A stretch of 64,000 nt of DNA from Dictyostelium purpureum (taxonomy: Eukaryota), in NCBI RefSeq assembly GCF_000190715.1, contig NW_003519425.1, positions 22,330 to 86,329 of the forward strand. Reading direction: 5' to 3'. The translations under genes were made by a program, and so were the position numbers. The notes under the pieces are model-generated. The model worked only from the letters and a program-made list of their open reading frames with translations. It was not told where the DNA came from and did not search any database. Positions 2,325 to 54,996 of the stretch are shown here, piece after piece; the first letter of the stretch is position 1, and each line of letters opens with the position of its first letter.

Positions 2325-4409
2325 ATGGATAGCAATAGTAATAATAGAAAAATTATAATAAAAAATATAATTAATAATGTTATAAATAATGTTATAGATA
2401 ATAGAAATAATAATAATAATTCTAATAATAATTCCAATGGTGAATTTAAAATATTACCAATGAGCCATACGGAAGTTGTATTTTGGAAAGTTTTTAAAAA
2501 TTGTTATCTAAAAAAAAATATATTTTCATTTTTCATTTTTAAAGATATCTTTAGATATGATGATATTTATTTTGTCCAAGATATAGTTCTTTATAAAAAT
2601 GCAGAAGAAATATACAAGGATAAAGTCAAAAGTGGAGCAGTTTTAAATTTCAGTGGAAAGCCCGTTTTGGAAAAGGAAAGAGTTCCACCCATATCTAATA
2701 TTTATAAAACCATCAATAAAAATACTAAAGAGAATAAAATGTTTTACCAGATGTTGTTTACCAAGTACCCAGAGGCAAATTCATTTTATGGAGACTCATT
2801 ACAGCAGATAATAAATGAAAAAAACTATGTTGCCTTTAAGCAGTACAGAAAAATGTTTCCAATCTCGTCAGAATTTAGAGAATCACTACCTGACATTAAA
2901 GAAATAAATTGTTTTGAAAATTATATTATGTGTAAGTTGTTATATCCTAACTTTGATTATAAAAATAAAATATCAGTTAGTATATTTAAAGACAACCAAG
3001 GAAATTCCATTACATTTAAAAAGTTACTCCAAATGTGTTGTATGGAAGAAGATGAACAACTAATCAACTGTTCAAAAAAACTTTTATCGTTTCCTATTAG
3101 CCATTTGTTCCGAACCCACCGTCTATTGGTTTTAGAATACATTCACTTATTTTATAGTTTAACTAATAACCCTCTCCCACCAGATTGTAATTCAATATTT
3201 TTCAATAATAAAGAAGAAGTTGTAAATAACAAAAACAGTACCAACAACAATAACAATAACATTAACAACAACAATAACAATAACAATAACAACAACAATA
3301 ACTATTACAATAACAATAACAATAACAATAACAATAACAATAACAATAACAACAACAATAACAACAACAATAACAACAACAATAACTATTACCATTACCA
3401 TTACAATAACAATAACAATAACAATAACAATAACAATAACAATAATATCAGTATTAATAATAATAATAATAATAATATTAGTATAACTAATGACTCTCTC
3501 CCACCATATTGTAATTCATTACATTACAATAATAAAGAAGAATTTGTAAATAATAGAAAAAGTAACATGAAAAAAAAAATCAGAAACCTTAAATACCTTA
3601 ATAATAATTTTATTAGAACTGACTATATCCTACCATGTTATAATACATTACTTTATTGTAATAAAGAAGAACTTTTACAAAACAAAACCTGCTACGACAA
3701 CATCAACAACAATAATATCAGTGCTGATTATGATAATAATATTTATAATAATTCTCCCTTTTTGTCTATAAAAAAATTCTATAATAATTCATTTAGTAGT
3801 TTAAAAAAATTCGAAGTGAATGATTTTGTAGACAGATATGAAGCATTTTATTTAGTCGCTAATATAAAGTATGAAAAAATTGAAATGCATTGTTCTGTTT
3901 ATATCAATTATTTGTATTTCTTTGGTTACAAAGAAGATCTTTACAGGATAACCTATATGTACCCAAATTCTCTTGGCCCCCATACACGTGAATACATATA
4001 CTCTGATATTATTCATCAATTTGTAAACACCATTGTCAAAAATTCAACACTTCCAGACTATAATTCAATGGCCTCTGCAAAACAAATTTTATTTTGTTTT
4101 AAAATTATAAACAAAATTTGCAAATACAATTTTTATCACACACTAAAATCGCTTGCATCAAATTACCATCACCTATTATTCAATTCACAACAAGGTTGGT
4201 ACAATGACAAAAAAGTAAAGACATTCATCACCACAGCAATTCAAAGTGAAAATTCAATAATTGCTGAACTTTTACTCGATTTCACCAAGATGGATAAATA
4301 TACTTTTAAAAATATTTTATTCAACAAACAATCATGGGAATCAACACATGAAAAAGTCAGATTTAACAATCTTTTAAAAAATTACAAATTTAAAGGTATT
4401 TTTGATTAA
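2325..4409 (+). CDS. Hypothetical Asn-rich protein (694 aa). N-terminus carries the 'VVFWKVFKNCYL' motif shared with FNIP-repeat proteins. Contains three internal repeats of the 'LPPxCNSxxxNNKEExVNN' type.
   Basis: Long uninterrupted ORF starting at ATG 2325. Coding (AAC/AAT)n tract 3238-3470. CA-rich upstream region at 1860-2230. Confidence 0.6.
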   Translation: MDSNSNNRKIIIKNIINNVINNVIDNRNNNNNSNNNSNGEFKILPMSHTEVVFWKVFKNCYLKKNIFSFFIFKDIFRYDDIYFVQDIVLYKNAEEIYKDKVKSGAVLNFSGKPVLEKERVPPISNIYKTINKNTKENKMFYQMLFTKYPEANSFYGDSLQQIINEKNYVAFKQYRKMFPISSEFRESLPDIKEINCFENYIMCKLLYPNFDYKNKISVSIFKDNQGNSITFKKLLQMCCMEEDEQLINCSKKLLSFPISHLFRTHRLLVLEYIHLFYSLTNNPLPPDCNSIFFNNKEEVVNNKNSTNNNNNNINNNNNNNNNNNNNYYNNNNNNNNNNNNNNNNNNNNNNNNNNYYHYHYNNNNNNNNNNNNNNISINNNNNNNISITNDSLPPYCNSLHYNNKEEFVNNRKSNMKKKIRNLKYLNNNFIRTDYILPCYNTLLYCNKEELLQNKTCYDNINNNNISADYDNNIYNNSPFLSIKKFYNNSFSSLKKFEVNDFVDRYEAFYLVANIKYEKIEMHCSVYINYLYFFGYKEDLYRITYMYPNSLGPHTREYIYSDIIHQFVNTIVKNSTLPDYNSMASAKQILFCFKIINKICKYNFYHTLKSLASNYHHLLFNSQQGWYNDKKVKTFITTAIQSENSIIAELLLDFTKMDKYTFKNILFNKQSWESTHEKVRFNNLLKNYKFKGIFD
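3238..3470 (+). repeat. Coding (AAC/AAT)n tract (poly-Asn, ~75 codons) inside the 2325-4409 ORF.
   Basis: Direct read. Causes spurious antisense VIV(n) ORF 3192-3401. Confidence 0.9.
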
Positions 4410-4728
4410 ATAAATATATTTTATAGTTTTTAAAAAATATTGAGATCAATTGATCTTTAAAGTCTTAAATTTCTTTTTATTATAATTTCATTTTTTTTCA
4501 ATTTTTCCCCCTATTTTTTTTAAATTTTAAAATTTTTTTAAAATTTTTTCATTTTTTTAATTTTAATTTTTTTTAATGACATTTAAGTAAATAAATATAT
4601 ATTTATAAAGTATATAAAAAGTTTTATAGTTTTATAGTTTTATAAATTGTTGTAATATTGAGGTTAGTATTTAAATTACATTATTATATTTTTATTATGA
4701 CGATCTTTTTAACAATTATTTAAATAAG

Positions 4729-7700
4729 ATGGTTGAAAATTGCAATAATAAAGGAATAATAGATTATTACATTATACCAAGGAATAATGTTAATCACGAG
4801 GTTATTAGAATAATAGCCTCCAATGCAAATATAGAGCCACATGACTATTTAGAAAGAAATGAAAATATTATAAAGGTTTCAAACATAGATGGTTATAACT
4901 GCGATCAATCAAACTGGGAAAAAGAATATAACAATGATTGGAGGAATAAATTAAATAGTTTAATAAATCACGATGTTCAATATATAGAGAATAAACTAAA
5001 AGATTATATAAATGATTCAAAGATTAAACTTAGTATTTTTAAGAATCAATCAAGTAAAGGATTTAGTAGTGGCAATACCAATACTGATTTTGGTTATAAA
5101 GAGGCTTTGAAGAATTTTACACAACAGCTTGATTACTATAATTTAGAAAGAGTCTATAATAAATCAAATCCTTTGGGTATCGAAAGTTGGTTTTCTTTAG
5201 CCAGATGCGACATCAATGAATCAAAATCATCAAACGAATATAGGGACGAAGGCGGTTTACCATTAGATTCAAATTTATTTGAAGGTTATTCCGAAAGATT
5301 ATCTTGTTTTTCACAATCCAATCATATATTATTGTTCCCAAAACCAATAAATAATAGTGATAATGATAATGATAGTAATAGTACCAATAGTCAACAACAA
5401 CAAGAAAATAATAATAACGAAGAATTTAATTCAAATAGTTTCAATCAAATTTTAATAGAGTTAGTAAGAGGTATTTACCAGTATAATAGTTTACCAATAT
5501 TTTCTTTACATTTAAATAATGATTGCAGTATGGATCCAGTTGTTCACCCAGCATACAGAAATACATTAGTAGGAAAGGTTTTATTTGCATTGGACTATTA
5601 TATGAAGGGGTTTCTTAATGGTGGCTTCATATCTAGCGATTATATAACCAACTATTACGATATAAAACAACCAGAAGATCAAGATGAGAATGCCATTAAA
5701 TCAAAAATAAGAAACTTAAAAAGAAATATTATTGACATCAAAGAAGAGATAGAATCTGGTGAATGGATGCACTTAAAAGATAAATTCGAATACAAGTCAC
5801 TTAGAGAAAGATCTTTCGAGCTGGGTTTAGAAGGAAAAGGTAACTTTAATGAAGTTCAAGCGGAAATAAGGCAACTTCATGGTATAGACGAAGATCCTAC
5901 TATTATTGCATTACAAAAGGCATGGGATAATTTAAATAAACCTGAAAATGGAGGGATAAAATTTAATACAACTTTTAGAGTTATAGCAAAAGAGAATTCA
6001 TGTCAAATGGAGGATGGTATATGGGTAGTTGATGGTGGTTTTACTGTTACATATATTATTGAACCAACTAAACCATATCAAGAATACATTGATGCTTATA
6101 AATCAGTATTCCATGGCCAAACACCAAAAGAATATCAATTACAAGAACAAGTTTATAGAGAAACTGCCGATGCGATATCAAATCAAATGCCTCTATTACC
6201 ACCTTGTCGTAAATACTTTGAAATGTTCAAACAAATTTCATTTTTATCTTCATATCTATCAACTCTAAAATCATCTGGACAAATACCAAATATTTCTCAA
6301 ATTAAGGAATCATTAAATGATATAGTTAACTTTAAAACTCCATTAAAAATACCACCTTTACCAGTTAGATTTTATAAAACTATTCAAATATCATTAACAA
6401 TTGATGATATTTTAAGTTTTATTAACACCAATTATAATCCAAATAATAATAATAATAATGAAAATTTAGAAATCTTAGTGTATGAGCAATTAAAAAGTTA
6501 TTTAGAATTGGTTTCAAGTTATGATAATATTCAATTTATTAATACAAGTAAAGAACAAGAAGAAATGATCAAAACTAAGAAATTAGAATTAAAGCAAACA
6601 ATTTCACGAGTAATTCACAAAATGATTGAAATTAAATATGAACACCCAATAAGATTTAAAAGTATCAGTGATCAGTTAAATATATTATCAAATAATTTTT
6701 TAAATTTTTTAGAAATGCACGTGGATATTGTTTTGGTCCAACAGTTCTCTGATTTAGTCAGTATTATGGGGTCATTTATTGAAGTGTTGGAACAAAATAA
6801 TCAAAAAGGATCAGACTATGGTGCACCTTGGCCTGTTTTTCAAGATATTGTTAACGAAGAAGATTTATTATCTGATTCAGACACAGCAAGTGAAACCTAT
6901 CTCCAAAAGATGGAAAAGGTTTCAGATTTCCGTGACGAATGTATCAGATTAAATATCAGCCTCGATGATCTGAAAAAAAGTTGTATGGAAATCATAGATT
7001 CTTGCAAAATCTTTTTATTTTCCGATAATTGTAGAGGTTGTAATGGTGATTTAGAATTGCATAAGAATAACCTTTTTAGTCAAGAAGACTCACTCTGCAC
7101 AATTGACTCACTCAAATGTTTTAAAAAATTTCTCAATATGTGTAAAGATCGGCTAGAAGAAAAGAAAAGAACACAAGGTTGGTTTTCCTCTATATTCAGT
7201 AATCCAGAAAAAGAAATAGCTGAAATAGATCAAACTTTATCCACATTACAAATTTCAAATATTAATCAGTACTCCAGTGTAGTAATCAGTTATTTAGAAG
7301 AGACTTTTGGAAATGTAGAAGACCTTGTCTCTTCACTCAAAGAATCAACTATTGATTTTTTTGAAAATCATTTATCGCATTTTACAAAAAAACTATTAAA
7401 ATTAATAAAAGACTCAAGCGGAACCCTCGATATTATTCAATGGCTAACCCAAGGCCGTTCTTCATCGATCCAGTCCAAATTAAATAGCACATCAACATCA
7501 AATTTATTAAACATTAGTTTATTACCTTTATCAAAAATAGAAATTGCAGATTCTACTTATTATTCAAAAGAAGGGGAATACCAAAAGATTTGGGGTGGCT
7601 GTTTTTTCGATTTTACAACATTAATAATTAAACCAATTAAGGAACTATCATCTGATGGTGGCTGTTTCACAGTGGAATCAATTAAGGATACTTTTGAGGG

Positions 7701-46924: not shown

Positions 46925-48001
46925 TTATAATTTTCTTTTGATTTCTTCTTTCTTTTGTCTGTAAAGTGAATTGTCGATGTAGGCATTATGTCTTTGATGT
47001 AAACCATAGTAACCACCAAGTGTAGCTAAACCAGCAATAAGAGAGAATCTAGCCATTGGTGATGCAGTTGGGAAGAAGAATGATGATGCAACTGTACCAG
47101 AGACACCACCAATACCAGCCCAAATAGCACCATTTCTCTTGTTTAATGTACCGAGATCTTTCTTGATAAAGTTGTATTCATTTTCGATGGCATTGGCAGA
47201 TTCATCGAGGGTTTCACCAGCTTTCTTTTTGAGGAGGTTGGCTTTCTTGGTAGCATCAGTAGCGAGATCTTCATAGGTATCATATGCTTTGTTTTTGAAT
47301 TGATTTGCTTTCTTTGAGGCATCTTTAGTAAAGTCTTCATAGGTATCATAGGCTTTGTTTTTGATATCAACGGCTTTCTTTGAGGCATCTTTGGAGAAAT
47401 CTTCATATGTGTCAACTGCTTTATGTTTGATTTCTTCAGCTTTCTTTTTGGCATCTTCGCTAAATTTACTAAGGTCGTTCTTTAATTCAGATGTGTTCAT
47501 TTCAATATCTTTTCTGGTATCAGCAGCCATTCTCTTGGTGTTTTTATGGACGTCACCAACTAATTGATCACCCTTCTTGTAAGCTTCATTGACTAAACGT
47601 TGACCTTCTTCTGTAGTTTCTTCTTTTGCACCCTTGAAGAAAGATGAGATACCATCAATGATACCATGGCTTTCGGTTTCAGCTTCTTCTAATTTTTCAT
47701 TAACATTCTTCTTTAAATCGTCAATTGCCTTTTCTTCTGGATCAACGAATGCACTCTTGACTGAGTCAATACCGCTTGAGATATATTCTTGGACTGTATG
47801 GGCACCAGAAATTGCGCCTTCCTTAACTGATTCCCATGATGTGGTGGCTGACTCTTCAACATCTTTGTTTAAATCTTTAATATCTTCTTTGGCATTGTAT
47901 TTGAATTTTTCAGCTTCTAAATTTGCTTTATTCTTTAATTTTTCACCTTCGTGTGATAATGAATTGAAGTTTTCTTTAGCTTGTTGTTCTACTCTACCCA
48001 T
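46925..48001 (-). CDS. LEA-like / apolipoprotein-like repeat protein with a C-terminal Gly/Ala-rich hydrophobic anchor.
   Basis: Uninterrupted 358-aa ORF from ATG at complement 47999-48001. Three tandem ~22-aa repeats (KKAxxIKNKAYDTYEDFxKDASKKA). Lys/Glu-rich predicted amphipathic helices. C-terminal GAIWAGIGGVSGTVASSFFFPTASPMARFSLIAGLATLGGYYGL. Confidence 0.6.
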   Translation of the reverse strand: MGRVEQQAKENFNSLSHEGEKLKNKANLEAEKFKYNAKEDIKDLNKDVEESATTSWESVKEGAISGAHTVQEYISSGIDSVKSAFVDPEEKAIDDLKKNVNEKLEEAETESHGIIDGISSFFKGAKEETTEEGQRLVNEAYKKGDQLVGDVHKNTKRMAADTRKDIEMNTSELKNDLSKFSEDAKKKAEEIKHKAVDTYEDFSKDASKKAVDIKNKAYDTYEDFTKDASKKANQFKNKAYDTYEDLATDATKKANLLKKKAGETLDESANAIENEYNFIKKDLGTLNKRNGAIWAGIGGVSGTVASSFFFPTASPMARFSLIAGLATLGGYYGLHQRHNAYIDNSLYRQKKEEIKRKL

Positions 48002-48931: not shown

Positions 48932-51392
48932 TTATAATAATTTTTCAAAATTAAAGTGGGCATTATCATTAACATTAACTAATTTAGAGAAGGAAACAAC
49001 TAAGTTACCTTCATTAAATTTCCAATCCCAACAGGTTGATTGTTTTGGTTCGCAACGATAAACGATTTTGTAATTTGGTACCATTTCAAGGAAAGCTTCC
49101 ATAACCATTTCATCAGCACAACGCTTGACAATATTTTCAGTAACAGCTTTAGTGACATCGGCAAAAGAATCACCAATACGAGCTTTGGATGAATCATCTA
49201 ATGATGGATAGATATCTTCGTAACAAGATTCTTCGATAGAAAAGTCAACTTTGGTGATATTCTTAACTTTTTCAAGGTACTCGGTGACTTTTTCTTGGTT
49301 TTCCTTTAAGTTGAGTTTAGCGGCTAACGAAAGAACACCTGGTACTGGTAAAATTTTAACGAAATCAAAGTGGGCATTATCGTTAATGTTAACAAGGTTC
49401 TTAAAGGTAAGATTTAAATCGCCACCATTAAAGTCCCAGCTCCAATAGGTGCCTTGTTTTTCATTTTTACGAATAACAAATTTAGCATTTGGAGTAGATT
49501 CCATAAAGGCTTCTAAAGTCTAAATAATATTAATAAAAAACATTATTGAATTAGTAACTATTTTAAATAAATCTTTATATTTTTTTTTTTTTTACATACC
49601 ATATCATTTTTACATCTCTTTTCAATATTATCGACTGAAGCTTTGATGATTTCAGAAAGGGTATCACCAATTCTAATTTTGGTAGTTTCATCAAATGTTG
49701 GGTAAATTTGTTCAATAGCTGACTCGTCATATGACCAATCGACGTTGGTAATTTTCTTCAATCTTTCGAATTGGGTATTAATTTTTTCTTGATTTTCTTT
49801 GATGTTTAATCTTGTGGCTAATGAGAATACACCTGGTACTGGTAAAACTTTAACAAAATCATAGTGAGCATTATCGTTAACGTTTACTAAACGACTGAAT
49901 GTGATAACTAAATCATTTGAAGGGAATGACCATGACCAATAATTCTTTTGTTTGGCATCAAATCTGAAAACAAATTTGGCATTTGCAGTTGCTTCAACGA
50001 AAGCTTCTAAAGTCTAAAATTTATTTTTAAAATATAAAAGTTAGTTTAAATTGTGATAAATAGCAATCACATAAACACTACTTACAGTTTCATCTTTACA
50101 TCTCTTTTCAATGTTGTCAACTGATACTTTAATAATTTCAGCAAAAGTGTCACCAAGTCTAGCTTTTGATGAATCATCAATAGTTGGGTAAATTTCTTCG
50201 AGGGATGACTCATCATATGACCAATCCATTGAGGTAATTTTTTTCATTCTTTCGTATTGGGTATTAATCTTTTCTTGATTTTCTTTGATATTTAATCTTG
50301 TGGCTAATGAGAATACACCTGGTACTGGTAAAACTTTAACAAAATCAAAATGGGCATTGTCGTTAACGTTTACTAAACGTGAAAAAGTAATAACTAAATC
50401 TGAATTTTGGAATGCCCAACTCCAGTAAGTTTTTTGTTTTGGATCGTTTCTAAAAACAATTTTACCATTTGAAGTTGCTTCTGAAAAAGCTTCACATGTC
50501 TAATGAACAGATAATAAAAATAAATCAGTATTAGTGGTGTTTAAAATTAAAAATTATAAAAACTAAAAAAAAAATACCTACAACTTCATCTTTACATCTT
50601 TTTTCAATGTTTTTAACCATAGCATCTAAAAGTTGTGATAAGGTATCACCATATGATTCTTTTGAACTATCGTCGATGGCTGGGTATGTGGCTTCGAGTG
50701 ATGATTCATCAAATGACCAATCTCTTCTGGTAATATCTTTTAATTTTTCAAAAGCTAAATCGAATTTTTCTTGATTGTTCTTTAAGTTTAATCTGGTGCC
50801 TAAAGAGTAGGTACCTTCAGATGGGATAATTTTGAATAATTTAAAGTGTGCAGCATCATTGATATTAGCGCAGTTTGATCTGAAAAGTAAATTGAGGTTA
50901 CCACCATCAAATTGATATTTCCAATATACAGTGTTCTTTGGGTCTGGGTTAATCATAACATTAACCATCTTGCTACAGTTGGCTTCGATTAAAGCCTCTC
51001 TTGTTAAATCATCTTTACATGCTTCAGCAATACATTTTGCAATATTTGGACTTAAATTTTTATAAAAAGTTTCACCCTAAACAATAGTAAAATTAAAAAT
51101 AAAATTAATTTTTAATTTTTATGTCAATTTAACAAACTATTAATTTATACATACAACATTTTTTTGGGTAGAGGCATCGAGTTTATCAAATAATGTATCC
51201 CTTTTAAAAAAATAAATTATAAAATTAATAAAAAAAAAAAGCTTTACAAAAAAAAATTAAATTAGTTTCTTACCAATCAAAGTTAATGGTCCATTCGACA
51301 CCAGCTAAAGAAGTTTTAATTGATTCCAAGGATTTGTTTAAATGTTCTTCATTGTCTCTTAAGGATTTACGGGCAGTTAATGGAAGTGGCAT
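48932..51392 (-). CDS. Modular protein (~691 aa) built from four tandem copies of one ~140-165 aa module. Six exons: complement(join(48932..49519,49600..50013,50086..50499,50582..51076,51155..51200,51274..51392)).
   Basis: Every module contains 'YWSW.F...L...F..LVNVNDNAHFDF.K.LPVPG..SLA.RLN.KENQEK' followed by 'DWS.DES..E.IYP..DDSSKAR.GD.F.....V.NIEKRCKDE.V'. Module exons are 495, 414, 414 and 588 nt, all joined by phase-0 introns (GTAGGT/GTAAGT/GTATGT ... tag|ACTTTAGAAGC). ATG at complement 51390-51392, then two small leader exons. Confidence 0.6.
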
Positions 51393-52236: not shown

Positions 52237-54996
52237 TTAATAGCCAGATCCGTCATCATCGCTGGTACCATCATCATCATCATCACTTATTATATCATTA
52301 TTGTTGTCATTTGCATTTGTATTTTCTTTATAATTAATAAAATTTATAAAATCAGAAGATAAACTTTTAAAATTATAAGTGTTAATTGATAGCCAATCTA
52401 TGTCTAAAGTATATCCATATTTGTCAGTTATTTGAATTTGAGAAAGTTTTTTAAAGTTTGGATTATTATGAAATACAGTAAAAATATCTGAAGCGGTTGA
52501 TGAGAGATTTGTTTGGGTGTACAATTTGAATGAAACAGTGTTTAAATTTTCTAAATTTTTAAAACACTCAAGTAAAATAGCCAAGCAGCCATCATAGAAT
52601 AACATTAGTTCCAAATATTTGATTCTTTTTTGTTTTTCTATATAAAGAATCTTGAAATTATCTGCAAAGGTATGGTTTATTCGATTTACAATAAGGGAGA
52701 ACCGAGAGAGTTTTGAAAGTTTACCGTCGTTGTAGATTCTAAAAAAGAGGTTCATATCAAAAGATAGTTCCTTGATCATTTTGGTGTTAATTCTATGCCC
52801 CAAGATGTAGTCACCTGTCAAAAAGAGTTCAATTTGATAGTGCTTACCTAACTCTTTTAACAACTTTACTGATTTCATAGCTTCCGTGAATGGACATTTG
52901 ATGATAATTCTCTTTAACGAAGGTACATTTAGGAAATTTTTTTTGTTTAAAATTTCTTTATTAATATGCCCAGTAATCTCTAATGTGTCCAATGATTTGA
53001 ATGCATCTAGAATATAAAATTCAGCTTTTATAACATTGTTAATTTTGATTTTTAACCATTTCACTGTCAAAGGCTTTATTATGGAGTGATTGCCCAATGA
53101 TTGAATCTCTAGTGAGTGGTAGTGGTAATAAATATCTAGAGGAACGAGCATTGATGAGTTCATTATATTTGATGTAATTTCGAATAGTTTTTTACTGACC
53201 AGTAATAGATTTAGTTTTTCGAATGAATATAATGAATTGTTATTAATTAAATTGAATATTATATTGGTTATTAAATAGTATGGTATTATAGGTGATCTAT
53301 CATTGGTTGCTTTTCGATTATTGCTACTGTCATTATTAAATGTTATTTTATTTCTGTATATTGCTAGACTGTTACATTCATCTGGAAAAACCGGTTTGAC
53401 GAATTGATCAATGGTGCTGATATGTAATATTGTTACTAAATGATTTAGTTTTTGATTTAAAAACTCTTTTAGTACTTTTGATTCTGCCAAATGCTGTTTA
53501 TTAAAAAATTTTGGTAATAGTAGCTCTAGTGTTGAGCTTCTCTTTAAATAATTGAATAGAGTTTCATATGAATGCTTTAAAATCTCTTTATCTTGAACCT
53601 GGTCTTCATTAATCTTGAATATATTTATTAGCCTTGGATATTCAGCCGCATCTAAGAGCTTTAAATATTTCTTGAGGTATACTGAGGTTGTTATATATCT
53701 TTCAATCTTGAGACCATTTATTAATTTGGTTACTAGATCTAAAGTTTCATTAATTGGTTCCTCCTTGAATAATATAACTATTTTTTTAATGATTAGTTTG
53801 CTTAATTCTTTTGACTCTATTTCATTTTGGTTTGGATCTTTTGATATCATAAAAAGATGTTCTATGATACTCAAAGCTGATTTAAAACAATTTTGATTAA
53901 AGCTACCATTCTCTAATAATGCTTGAATTATAAAGTTCATTTTTTCCATTACTTCCACATGAATATTGCTATCAATGTGGATATTCTCGTAAACGGTTTG
54001 GGTGTTTTTGAAATAATTGAAGACCAGTTGTTTAAAGTCTACTATAAAGGTATTGGTTTGAACTTTTTTACGGCCGCAACTAATAATCTTTAAATATAAC
54101 AGCTCTTTATCTTGGGCACTTCTATATTCATCTTGATTTATTAACTGAATTAAAAATCTAATCTCATCGATATAGTTTTCGAAATTATCTCTATTATATG
54201 CTGAAAATTCACTGCTTTCGAAAAACTCTATTATATCTTTGCTATATTTTTTATAATCTTCTGTACTCAAAATTTGTCTAAATGATAACATTGCAATTAA
54301 TAAACTGTTATAATAAAACTTGGTCTTATTGATTTCTTTTATAAAGTCAACTATAGCTTTGATAACTTTATTTGATAATTGCTATTTATAAATCAAATTA
54401 AAATATTAAAATATGTTGGTTTTTTGATATTGATTTAGTTATTTTATAATTAAATAATAAAACTTACAATTTTAAATTCAGTATCATCTAAATTGTTTAT
54501 ATTATTAAATATGAATTGAAAAAATGTTGAACCTTTCCAAAAAAATAACCAATTTGAATTTGATGATTCATTTAAATAAATTCTAATGAATTTTAAAATA
54601 ATAGATTCTATTTGTATATTTGAATAGTTGGTTTTAATAAAGTCTGGATATTTTAAAGCAATATTTTGTTCAAATTCGCTATATCTAATTTGTTTGGATG
54701 ATTCATTTGTTTTAAATTTATCTATAATTCTTAAGAAAAGCTTGGTTGGTGAGATGTTTCTAATGAATTATTTGTGATTATAAATAATATATACACATAC
54801 ATTTTTATATTTATTAATTGATTTTTATTAAGTTTTATTAAATTCCCATATAAATATAAATATTTCATTAGAAATTGAAATGATTTAAATGAGGTTTCAT
54901 TATTTTGTTGGTCTAATAATAAGGATGAACAGTATTCATCTATGTTTATAAGTGTGTTATAGCCGTCGTTCATTGGGGGATAAAAAAAAAAATGCA
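52237..54996 (-). CDS. Hypothetical protein (>800 aa) with an acidic C-terminal tail (DDDDDGTSDDDGSGY). At least three exons; 5' exon boundaries unresolved.
   Basis: Large 3' exon 52237..54381 preceded by acceptor tttataaatag. Middle exon ~54468..54740 ends at GTAAGT (54462-54467). 5' exon starts ATGCATTTTTTTTTTTATCCCCCAATGAACGACGGC at ~54996 and ends at a GTATGT donor near 54812. Confidence 0.45.

Follow-up and report, generated by a model that had tools for sequence, protein, structure and literature searches.

How does a gene come to carry a row of exons of closely matched length that encode the same protein module over and over? This question is raised by a locus on the minus strand of Dictyostelium purpureum contig NW_003519425.1, within a 64,000-nucleotide (64-kb) stretch of DNA that is referred to here as the window. 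An earlier note, made from the sequence alone, described window positions 48932 to 51392 as a gene of four tandem phase-0 exons, each encoding one copy of an uncharacterised module of about 140 amino acids (aa), and took this layout as the signature of recent exon duplication. We conclude that the locus, which corresponds to DICPUDRAFT_54671, is very probably one ordinary spliced gene that carries an old array of five domains. Its repeated exons are one period long yet out of register with the protein fold.

Joining six exons across GT..AG introns between 51392 and 48932 on the minus strand gives a 2076-nucleotide reading frame that encodes a protein of 691 aa. The surrounding DNA is AT-rich, of the Dictyostelium type. 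In the direction of transcription, the exons and introns are as follows.

51274-51392, minus strand: exon 1, 119 nucleotides, with ATG at 51392-51390 and donor G/GTAAGA; encodes aa 1-39 and 2 nucleotides of codon 40, the start of domain 1 (MPLPLTARKSLRDNEE...).
51201-51273, minus strand: intron 1, 73 nucleotides, phase 2, GC content 10%.
51155-51200, minus strand: exon 2, 46 nucleotides.
51077-51154, minus strand: intron 2, 78 nucleotides, phase 0, before GETFYKN.
50582-51076, minus strand: exon 3, 495 nucleotides; last 27 helical aa and beta part of domain 1, then helical part (residues 1-82) of domain 2.
50500-50581, minus strand: intron 3, 82 nucleotides, phase 0, GTAGGT..TAG; after domain 2 residue 82.
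50086-50499, minus strand: exon 4, 414 nucleotides, one period; beta part of domain 2 and helical part of domain 3.
50014-50085, minus strand: intron 4, 72 nucleotides, phase 0; after domain 3 residue 82.
49600-50013, minus strand: exon 5, 414 nucleotides, one period; beta part of domain 3 and helical part of domain 4.
49520-49599, minus strand: intron 5, 80 nucleotides, phase 0; after domain 4 residue 82.
48932-49519, minus strand: exon 6, 588 nucleotides including the TAA stop at 48934-48932; beta part of domain 4 and all of domain 5.

All five introns are short (72-82 nucleotides) and have a GC content of 10-18%, compared to 31-35% for the exons. Every one of them would introduce in-frame stops if retained, and the length of three of the five is not a multiple of three. 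Intron 1 is in phase 2 and introns 2, 3, 4, and 5 are in phase 0. The four large exons of 495, 414, 414, and 588 nucleotides (51076-50582, 50499-50086, 50013-49600, and 49519-48932), and the three phase-0 junctions among them, agree with the earlier description, and the peptide motifs quoted there are present in the translation. The acceptor said to be the same at every junction proved to be shared by two of the three, where tag is followed by ACTTTAGAAGC; at the third, tag is followed by ACATGTGAAGC. The bases flanking the acceptor are codons for T-L-E-A, and hence what is shared is coding sequence and not a splice signal.

The spliced 691-aa product (P0001) matches the public "hypothetical protein DICPUDRAFT_54671" with 100% identity over 100% of its length. 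The public annotation therefore already treats the locus as one gene and has precisely these exons, and the concern that it would be mis-annotated as four small genes did not materialise for D. purpureum. The closest known counterparts are two 695-aa "hypothetical proteins" of D. discoideum AX4, DDB_G0290465 (Q54G31) and DDB_G0293724 (Q54BI8), with full-length identities of 56-57%. The spliced D. purpureum protein aligns with orthologues of the D. discoideum group without a gap across all five junctions, and in those orthologues the whole array lies in a single uninterrupted exon. Canonical introns, in-frame stops, and gap-free collinearity with orthologues that lack the mid-domain introns thus bear out the proposal of a single spliced gene.

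We next asked how many copies the protein contains and where they begin and end. The motif H-[FY]-x-[FL]-x-K-[VIL]-[LI], which closes the beta part, occurs five times, ending at residues 139, 277, 415, 553, and 691. Since the last of these is the C-terminus, the length of 691 aa equals the initiator Met plus 5 x 138. Domain borders fall at ...KVL/PVPG, with the helical part first and the beta part last in each domain. Domains 2-5 are pairwise 52-72% identical at the protein level without gaps, and domain 1 is a diverged copy that is ~30% identical to the others, with a few insertions or deletions.

50825-51389, minus strand: domain 1, aa 2-139, spliced over introns 1 and 2; ~60% identical to domain 1 of the orthologues.
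50329-50824, minus strand: domain 2, aa 140-277, spliced over intron 3.
49843-50328, minus strand: domain 3, aa 278-415, spliced over intron 4; the unit used for the structure model.
49349-49842, minus strand: domain 4, aa 416-553, spliced over intron 5.
48935-49348, minus strand: domain 5, aa 554-691, without an intron; ends in ...NFEKLL at the C-terminus, as in all orthologues.

The count of four modules had overlooked the diverged copy, whose helical part is encoded by exons 1 and 2 and the first 27 codons of exon 3. It had also treated exon 6 as one module, although the last 57 codons of that exon encode the beta part of the fifth copy. A search of the 64-kb window for further copies of the domain found none. 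At the DNA level, a general repeat search detected a 300-nucleotide block four times, with 63-85% identity to the reference copy and spacings of 494, 486, and 496 nucleotides, far beyond chance. Tandem Repeats Finder missed this period of ~490 nucleotides, owing to the strong divergence of the copies and to the introns that break them up.

The helical-first, beta-last register is supported by several features of the family. All ten homologues begin with MPL.L.ARKSLRD and end with NF.(E/K)LL, and free-standing relatives of ~140 aa use the same register. Among the 150 best representatives of the domain family, the domain stands at the start of 107 of the 127 Met-initiated proteins and at the end of 122 of 150, nearly always on Leu. 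The same register is supported by an AlphaFold2 model of unit 3 (aa 278-415), computed from a 42-unit alignment. This prediction for a single module, which had been suggested as a check, gave a confident fold, with a mean predicted local distance difference test score (pLDDT) of 93.4 and a predicted template-modelling score (pTM) of 0.86. The model has helices at residues 8-16, 18-32, 40-49, 52-55, 58-76, 80-89, and 126-131 and strands at 94-99, 107-110, and 116-120. The domain is predicted to be of the alpha+beta type, with about six helices followed by a beta part of three strands and, at the C-terminal end, a short helix. A model of the full-length protein shows one secondary-structure pattern five times over, joined by short linkers (pLDDT 91.4).

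Introns 3-5 each follow unit residue 82 and lie within the predicted helix 80-89. Each 414-nucleotide exon therefore begins with the final 56 residues of one domain and continues with residues 1-82 of its successor. Exon borders and domain borders do not coincide, the helix being cut at residue 82/83, and the equation of one exon with one module is not tenable for an intron placed inside a helix in mid-domain. Only exons 4 and 5 span exactly one period; exons 3 and 6 hold one period plus a partial one. The appearance of four matched exons follows from introns that cut domains 2, 3, and 4 at an identical codon boundary. The earlier suggestion that the locus is prone to exon skipping or unequal crossing-over finds support in exons 4 and 5. 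These are both 414 nucleotides long, lie in tandem, and are symmetric, with phase 0 at either end, so that skipping of either, or unequal crossing-over between them, would stay in frame and copy number can change without a frameshift.

To place the array in time, we compared its units across species. Five-unit homologues are found in D. citrinum, D. discoideum AX4, D. firmibasis (two paralogues), and Heterostelium album. The copy number, which the earlier note had proposed to compare among species, is consequently not specific to D. purpureum but is shared by H. album and the D. discoideum group. The latter has two paralogues of the gene; D. purpureum has one protein among the matches returned. 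In identity matrices, D. purpureum unit 1 is 59-61% identical to unit 1 elsewhere and only 26-35% identical to other units. The best match of unit 2 is unit 2 elsewhere (53-59%), and that of unit 5 is unit 5 elsewhere (51-52%). Judged from these identities, domains 1, 2, and 5 are positional orthologues across dictyostelids. Units 3 and 4 behave differently: within a species they are 72% (D. purpureum), 89% (D. discoideum), or 63% (H. album) identical, versus 57-62% between species. Such a pattern is indicative of concerted evolution: gene conversion or unequal exchange has partly homogenised the inner domains 3 and 4, lineage by lineage.

Exons 4 and 5 are 80% identical in DNA and 77% in protein. 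Their synonymous divergence (dS) is 0.64 and their nonsynonymous divergence (dN) is 0.16; the dN/dS ratio of about 0.25 indicates purifying selection. All other pairs in the exon register have a dS of 1.2-2.1. Introns 3, 4, and 5 align with one another no better than with the unrelated intron 2 (z-scores of 0.3-3.0). Within exons 4 and 5, one tract stands out.

50200-50379, minus strand: homogenised tract in exon 4, exon nucleotides 121-300, with the domain 2/3 border inside; partner 49714-49893.
49714-49893, minus strand: homogenised tract in exon 5, exon nucleotides 121-300, with the domain 3/4 border inside; partner 50200-50379.

Between the two exons this tract has 19 differences in 180 nucleotides (about 89% identity), a dS of 0.34, and an identical run of 57 nucleotides; 60-nucleotide windows at its centre reach 93-96% identity. 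The tract marks an old local conversion event. Given the high dS, the non-alignable introns, and the positional orthology, we conclude that the array is ancient and under purifying selection and did not arise by recent exon duplication.

The introns themselves serve as lineage markers. D. purpureum, D. discoideum, and H. album have just one intron in common, that before GE(T/V)FYKN in unit 1; this intron, intron 2 of D. purpureum, is the sole ancestral intron of the array. DDB_G0290465 and DDB_G0293724, which are orthologues or co-orthologues of the D. purpureum gene, share this intron, the order of the five domains, and both termini, but they have the array in a single exon without mid-domain introns. 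Neither the D. discoideum-group genes nor H. album has the residue-82 introns of units 2-4, and the mid-domain introns of D. purpureum are lineage-specific. H. album has introns after ...LEQ/VYP... in unit 3 and unit 4 alike, at a position unlike that in D. purpureum; others interrupt the beta parts of units 2 and 5 or fall at the unit 4/5 border. Introns at the same position in adjacent units are thus independent cases in two lineages, which fits copying of intron-bearing segments between units.

Two other accounts of the locus have to be weighed against a single gene with an old array. The array might have arisen recently by fourfold duplication of one exon, each exon being one structural module. 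Such an origin would explain why exons 4 and 5 have the same length, are phase 0 at both ends, are 80% identical in DNA, and share both the 57-nucleotide run and the first 11 nucleotides past the acceptor. It would also explain why similarity is highest in the exon register (77% protein identity for exons 4 and 5 versus 66-72% for neighbouring domains). However, even the closest pair has a dS of 0.64, and the introns do not align. The five-unit layout and its positional orthology also occur in species that lack these introns. Moreover, the intron interrupts a helix, and the domain that it cuts is found on its own, at 138 aa, in the other register; a fifth, diverged copy extends across exons 1-3. 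We consider recent exon duplication unlikely and already largely refuted. Even less credible is a set of separate small tandem genes. Open reading frames (ORFs) of 190, 67, 68, and 145 aa do appear in the mechanical ORF list, exactly as the earlier note gave them. The first start codons of the middle ORFs, however, lie in mid-exon and would yield truncated half-domains, and the gaps between the ORFs are the 72-82-nucleotide GT..AG segments with 10-18% GC. Orthologues continue through the same positions in one ORF, and the public model is a single 691-aa protein. Separate genes are therefore scarcely conceivable. A single spliced gene with an old five-domain array remains the account that we favour, and three points count against it. 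The evidence for the splice junctions is comparative and sequence-based only, the pTM of 0.55 for the full-length model leaves the mutual arrangement of the domains uncertain, and, with three lineages compared, the residue-82 introns could reflect either gain in the D. purpureum lineage or loss elsewhere.

The general concern that repeats of this kind cause annotation errors was borne out in the orthologues. Six models of 554 aa from D. discoideum-group assemblies (P0007, P0008, and four more of the P0008 cluster) pass directly from PSEG, at the start of unit 2, to VFSLAARL in unit 3. At the underlying loci (L001, positions 4001-6296, and L003, positions 3001-5268), all five units are present in frame, so that the models have spliced out an intact domain of 423 nucleotides, unit 2. 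When L001 was re-spliced as three exons, it gave a 695-aa protein that is 100% identical to AX4 DDB_G0290465. L003 encodes residues 56-695 of DDB_G0293724 with 98.75% identity and no gaps. We considered whether the 554-aa models could be natural four-copy alleles produced by unequal crossing-over, and we rejected this because the same loci hold all five units. The models look like a systematic annotation artefact at tandem-domain genes. In the H. album model PPL_05858 (770 aa), a donor site was read through and unrelated exons were added; the stretch concerned is 5540-5681 of L002. The true last exon that it misses lies at about 5610-5681 of L002, encodes NLVVSFNRLCNISDNNYYNFEKLL followed by a stop, and ends in ...NNYYNFEKLL. 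Dictyostelids also have two-domain paralogues of 276-279 aa (P0174, P0175, P0032/P0172, and P0176), such as Tieghemostelium DLAC_01991 and DLAC_00574 and D. citrinum ACTFIV_010566. In T. lacteum DLAC_05698, a Pro/Gln/Tyr-rich N-terminal extension precedes two units.

We then determined how widely the domain is distributed. An exhaustive profile search of 1.84 billion representatives found 349 proteins at E <= 1e-3 and 173 at E <= 1e-10, and the family comprises at least 349 clusters at 50% identity. Met-initiated proteins among the 150 best representatives contain one unit (39 proteins), two (61), three (11), four (6), or five (5). In this sample, the commonest form has two units and a length of about 285 aa; five copies are rare (5 of 127). 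Identifiable sources are Dictyostelia, Physarum polycephalum, Percolomonas, the MMETSP and EukProt transcriptomes, and many short environmental contigs. Family-wide conservation covers LPLxxRKNIRDxE (residues 6-18), G33, G59, K78-D79, K83-E84-A85-F86, I95, Y106, G114, L116, N125, and the terminal Leu. Some relatives carry an N-terminal PH domain (P0041 and P0125), a PX domain (P0127), or a SAM domain (P0149).

Single-domain members of 138 aa also occur in clearly bacterial contexts, for example, beside MurJ, IleRS, and signal peptidase II. The sources are two Francisellaceae metagenome-assembled genomes (MAGs) and one Oligoflexia MAG (contigs L008/L009, L010, and L011), as well as metagenome contigs L005-L007. 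The bacterial-type protein P0136 is matched by a profile built from dictyostelids only, with an E value of 5e-15. Francisellaceae and Oligoflexia are lineages with known intracellular or protist-associated lifestyles, and the bacterial members could be the result of lateral transfer between protists and associated bacteria. Elsewhere, bacterial neighbourhoods include an ankyrin/peptidase C39-like gene.

As the earlier note had reported, the module could not be assigned to a curated family. Pfam-A (2025 copy) gave no match for single units, nor for 20 relatives outside their PH, PX, and SAM parts. Two matches to the whole protein, to TubZ_C (PF21493; 30.6 bits) and to GMC_oxred_C_1st, were both rejected as artefacts of adding up five weak partial matches, since single units give neither; that to TubZ_C covers a 31-position piece of a 133-position profile. 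Sequence searches of the PDB with the single protein or the profile found no relative, the best profile match being interferon-beta at E 0.1. Foldseek searches of the PDB and of BFVD (viral models) found nothing significant (best E 0.25). No unit has an HExxH motif, and there is no invariant Cys. A second homology search with the family profile returned only "hypothetical protein" labels. Literature searches with gene and protein identifiers led to a single proteomics table, and a generic search led to nothing relevant. We conclude that the domain family is widespread in protists and is without a Pfam entry, solved structure, literature, or known function.

Features of the protein bear on where it acts. 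It is soluble and acidic, with a mass of 79.5 kDa and an isoelectric point of 5.1. We found no hydrophobic segment of the signal or transmembrane kind, the maximum 19-aa Kyte-Doolittle hydropathy being 1.41. In D. discoideum, an anti-O-fucose-Thr pulldown from vegetative cells contained the orthologue Q54G31 (DDB_G0290465), as shown by mass spectrometry, with 5.8-fold enrichment over the spy knock-out (p = 0.025) (PMC11507795). Recovery in this pulldown fits a nucleocytoplasmic protein. Table 2 of the same study labels Q54G31 as "ser/thr kinase related" (PMC11507795); we found this label to be unsupported, as no kinase-like feature appeared in any search. The domain occurs alone, in two to five copies, or with PH, PX, or SAM domains, which would make a multivalent adaptor or scaffold the most likely role of the five-copy protein. 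Its place would be in the cytosol, near membranes or signalling complexes. The most economical reading, which we offer tentatively and with considerable doubt, is that the domain may be an intracellular interaction module and the five-copy protein a multivalent adaptor.

Other roles for the domain can be weighed on the same evidence. In Dictyostelium, tandem-domain proteins are commonly extracellular or at the cell surface (adhesin-like), and the tandem architecture is the one feature that would suit an extracellular or cell-surface repeat protein here. Such a location is hard to reconcile with the lack of a signal peptide or transmembrane segment, with relatives fused to the cytosolic modules PH, PX, and SAM, or with recovery of the orthologue in a nucleocytoplasmic O-fucose pulldown, and we regard it as extremely improbable. 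An enzymatic or ubiquitin-binding role, with the domain a divergent relative of the HECT C-lobe (ubiquitin handling) or of zincins (metalloproteases), gains something from the Cys at position 77 in the NIEKxCKD motif, which is present in 46% of non-redundant units. That Cys is nevertheless not invariant and sits at the end of a helix instead of in a loop. HExxH is found in no unit, and the protein has neither a HECT N-lobe nor a HECT match in Pfam anywhere. Profile searches of PDB sequences and Pfam were empty, and the best Foldseek E value was 0.25. This role, too, is very unlikely. A broader proposal, which keeps the interaction module at its core, strikes us as possible but still rather doubtful. 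The 138-aa unit may found an undescribed alpha+beta family, lacking any confident structural relative, of Amoebozoa, Heterolobosea, and many uncultured protists that was acquired in single-domain form by Francisellaceae and Oligoflexia. It would serve as a membrane-proximal interaction module, as the PH, PX, and SAM fusions suggest, possibly with a remotely HECT-C-lobe-like, ubiquitin-binding fold, and five-copy proteins would be multivalent scaffolds.

The genes on either side are uninformative about the repeat gene. The downstream neighbour (46925-48001, minus strand) is a 358-aa ORF with repeated K(N/H)KA.DTYEDF.KDASKKA motifs and a hydrophobic C-terminus. Its Pfam matches are all sub-threshold (apolipoprotein, phasin, and YtxH-like), and it looks like an LEA or lipid-droplet-type protein with amphipathic helices. 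The upstream neighbour (52237-54291, minus strand), an ORF of 684 aa without a Pfam match, has a C-terminal tail that is acidic and rich in Asp.

The gene is an already-annotated, ordinary member of the class of tandem-domain proteins, with no sign of an unusual mechanism. It is a clear-cut case in which exons match the repeat period but not the register of the protein fold. Arrays of this kind mislead annotation pipelines: the 554-aa models drop a domain, and the H. album model loses the true C-terminus. The domain is the more interesting product of the analysis, being well folded, widely distributed, and present both in PH, PX, and SAM fusions and in bacterial MAGs. The family would merit a formal definition and a knock-out.

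Compared with known systems, the domain belongs with the unnamed protist and bacterial family represented by Physarum EP00026_P007882, Percolomonas EP00818_P008806, DLAC_01991, and Francisellaceae UBA6186, with which it shares the 138-aa length and the signature; some of these relatives have PH, PX, or SAM domains, whereas DICPUDRAFT_54671 does not. The link to the HECT C-lobe (e.g., UBR5, PDB 3pt3_B) went undetected by Foldseek and is one of resemblance only, not membership, since the domain lacks both a conserved catalytic Cys loop and an N-lobe. Classical genes built by symmetric phase-0 exon duplication or shuffling resemble the locus in that exons 4 and 5, which lie in tandem, each span one period and have phase 0 on either side. 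The locus differs from them in that its exon borders cut a helix instead of following domain borders, and in that the duplication is ancient and the same array is free of these introns in sister lineages.

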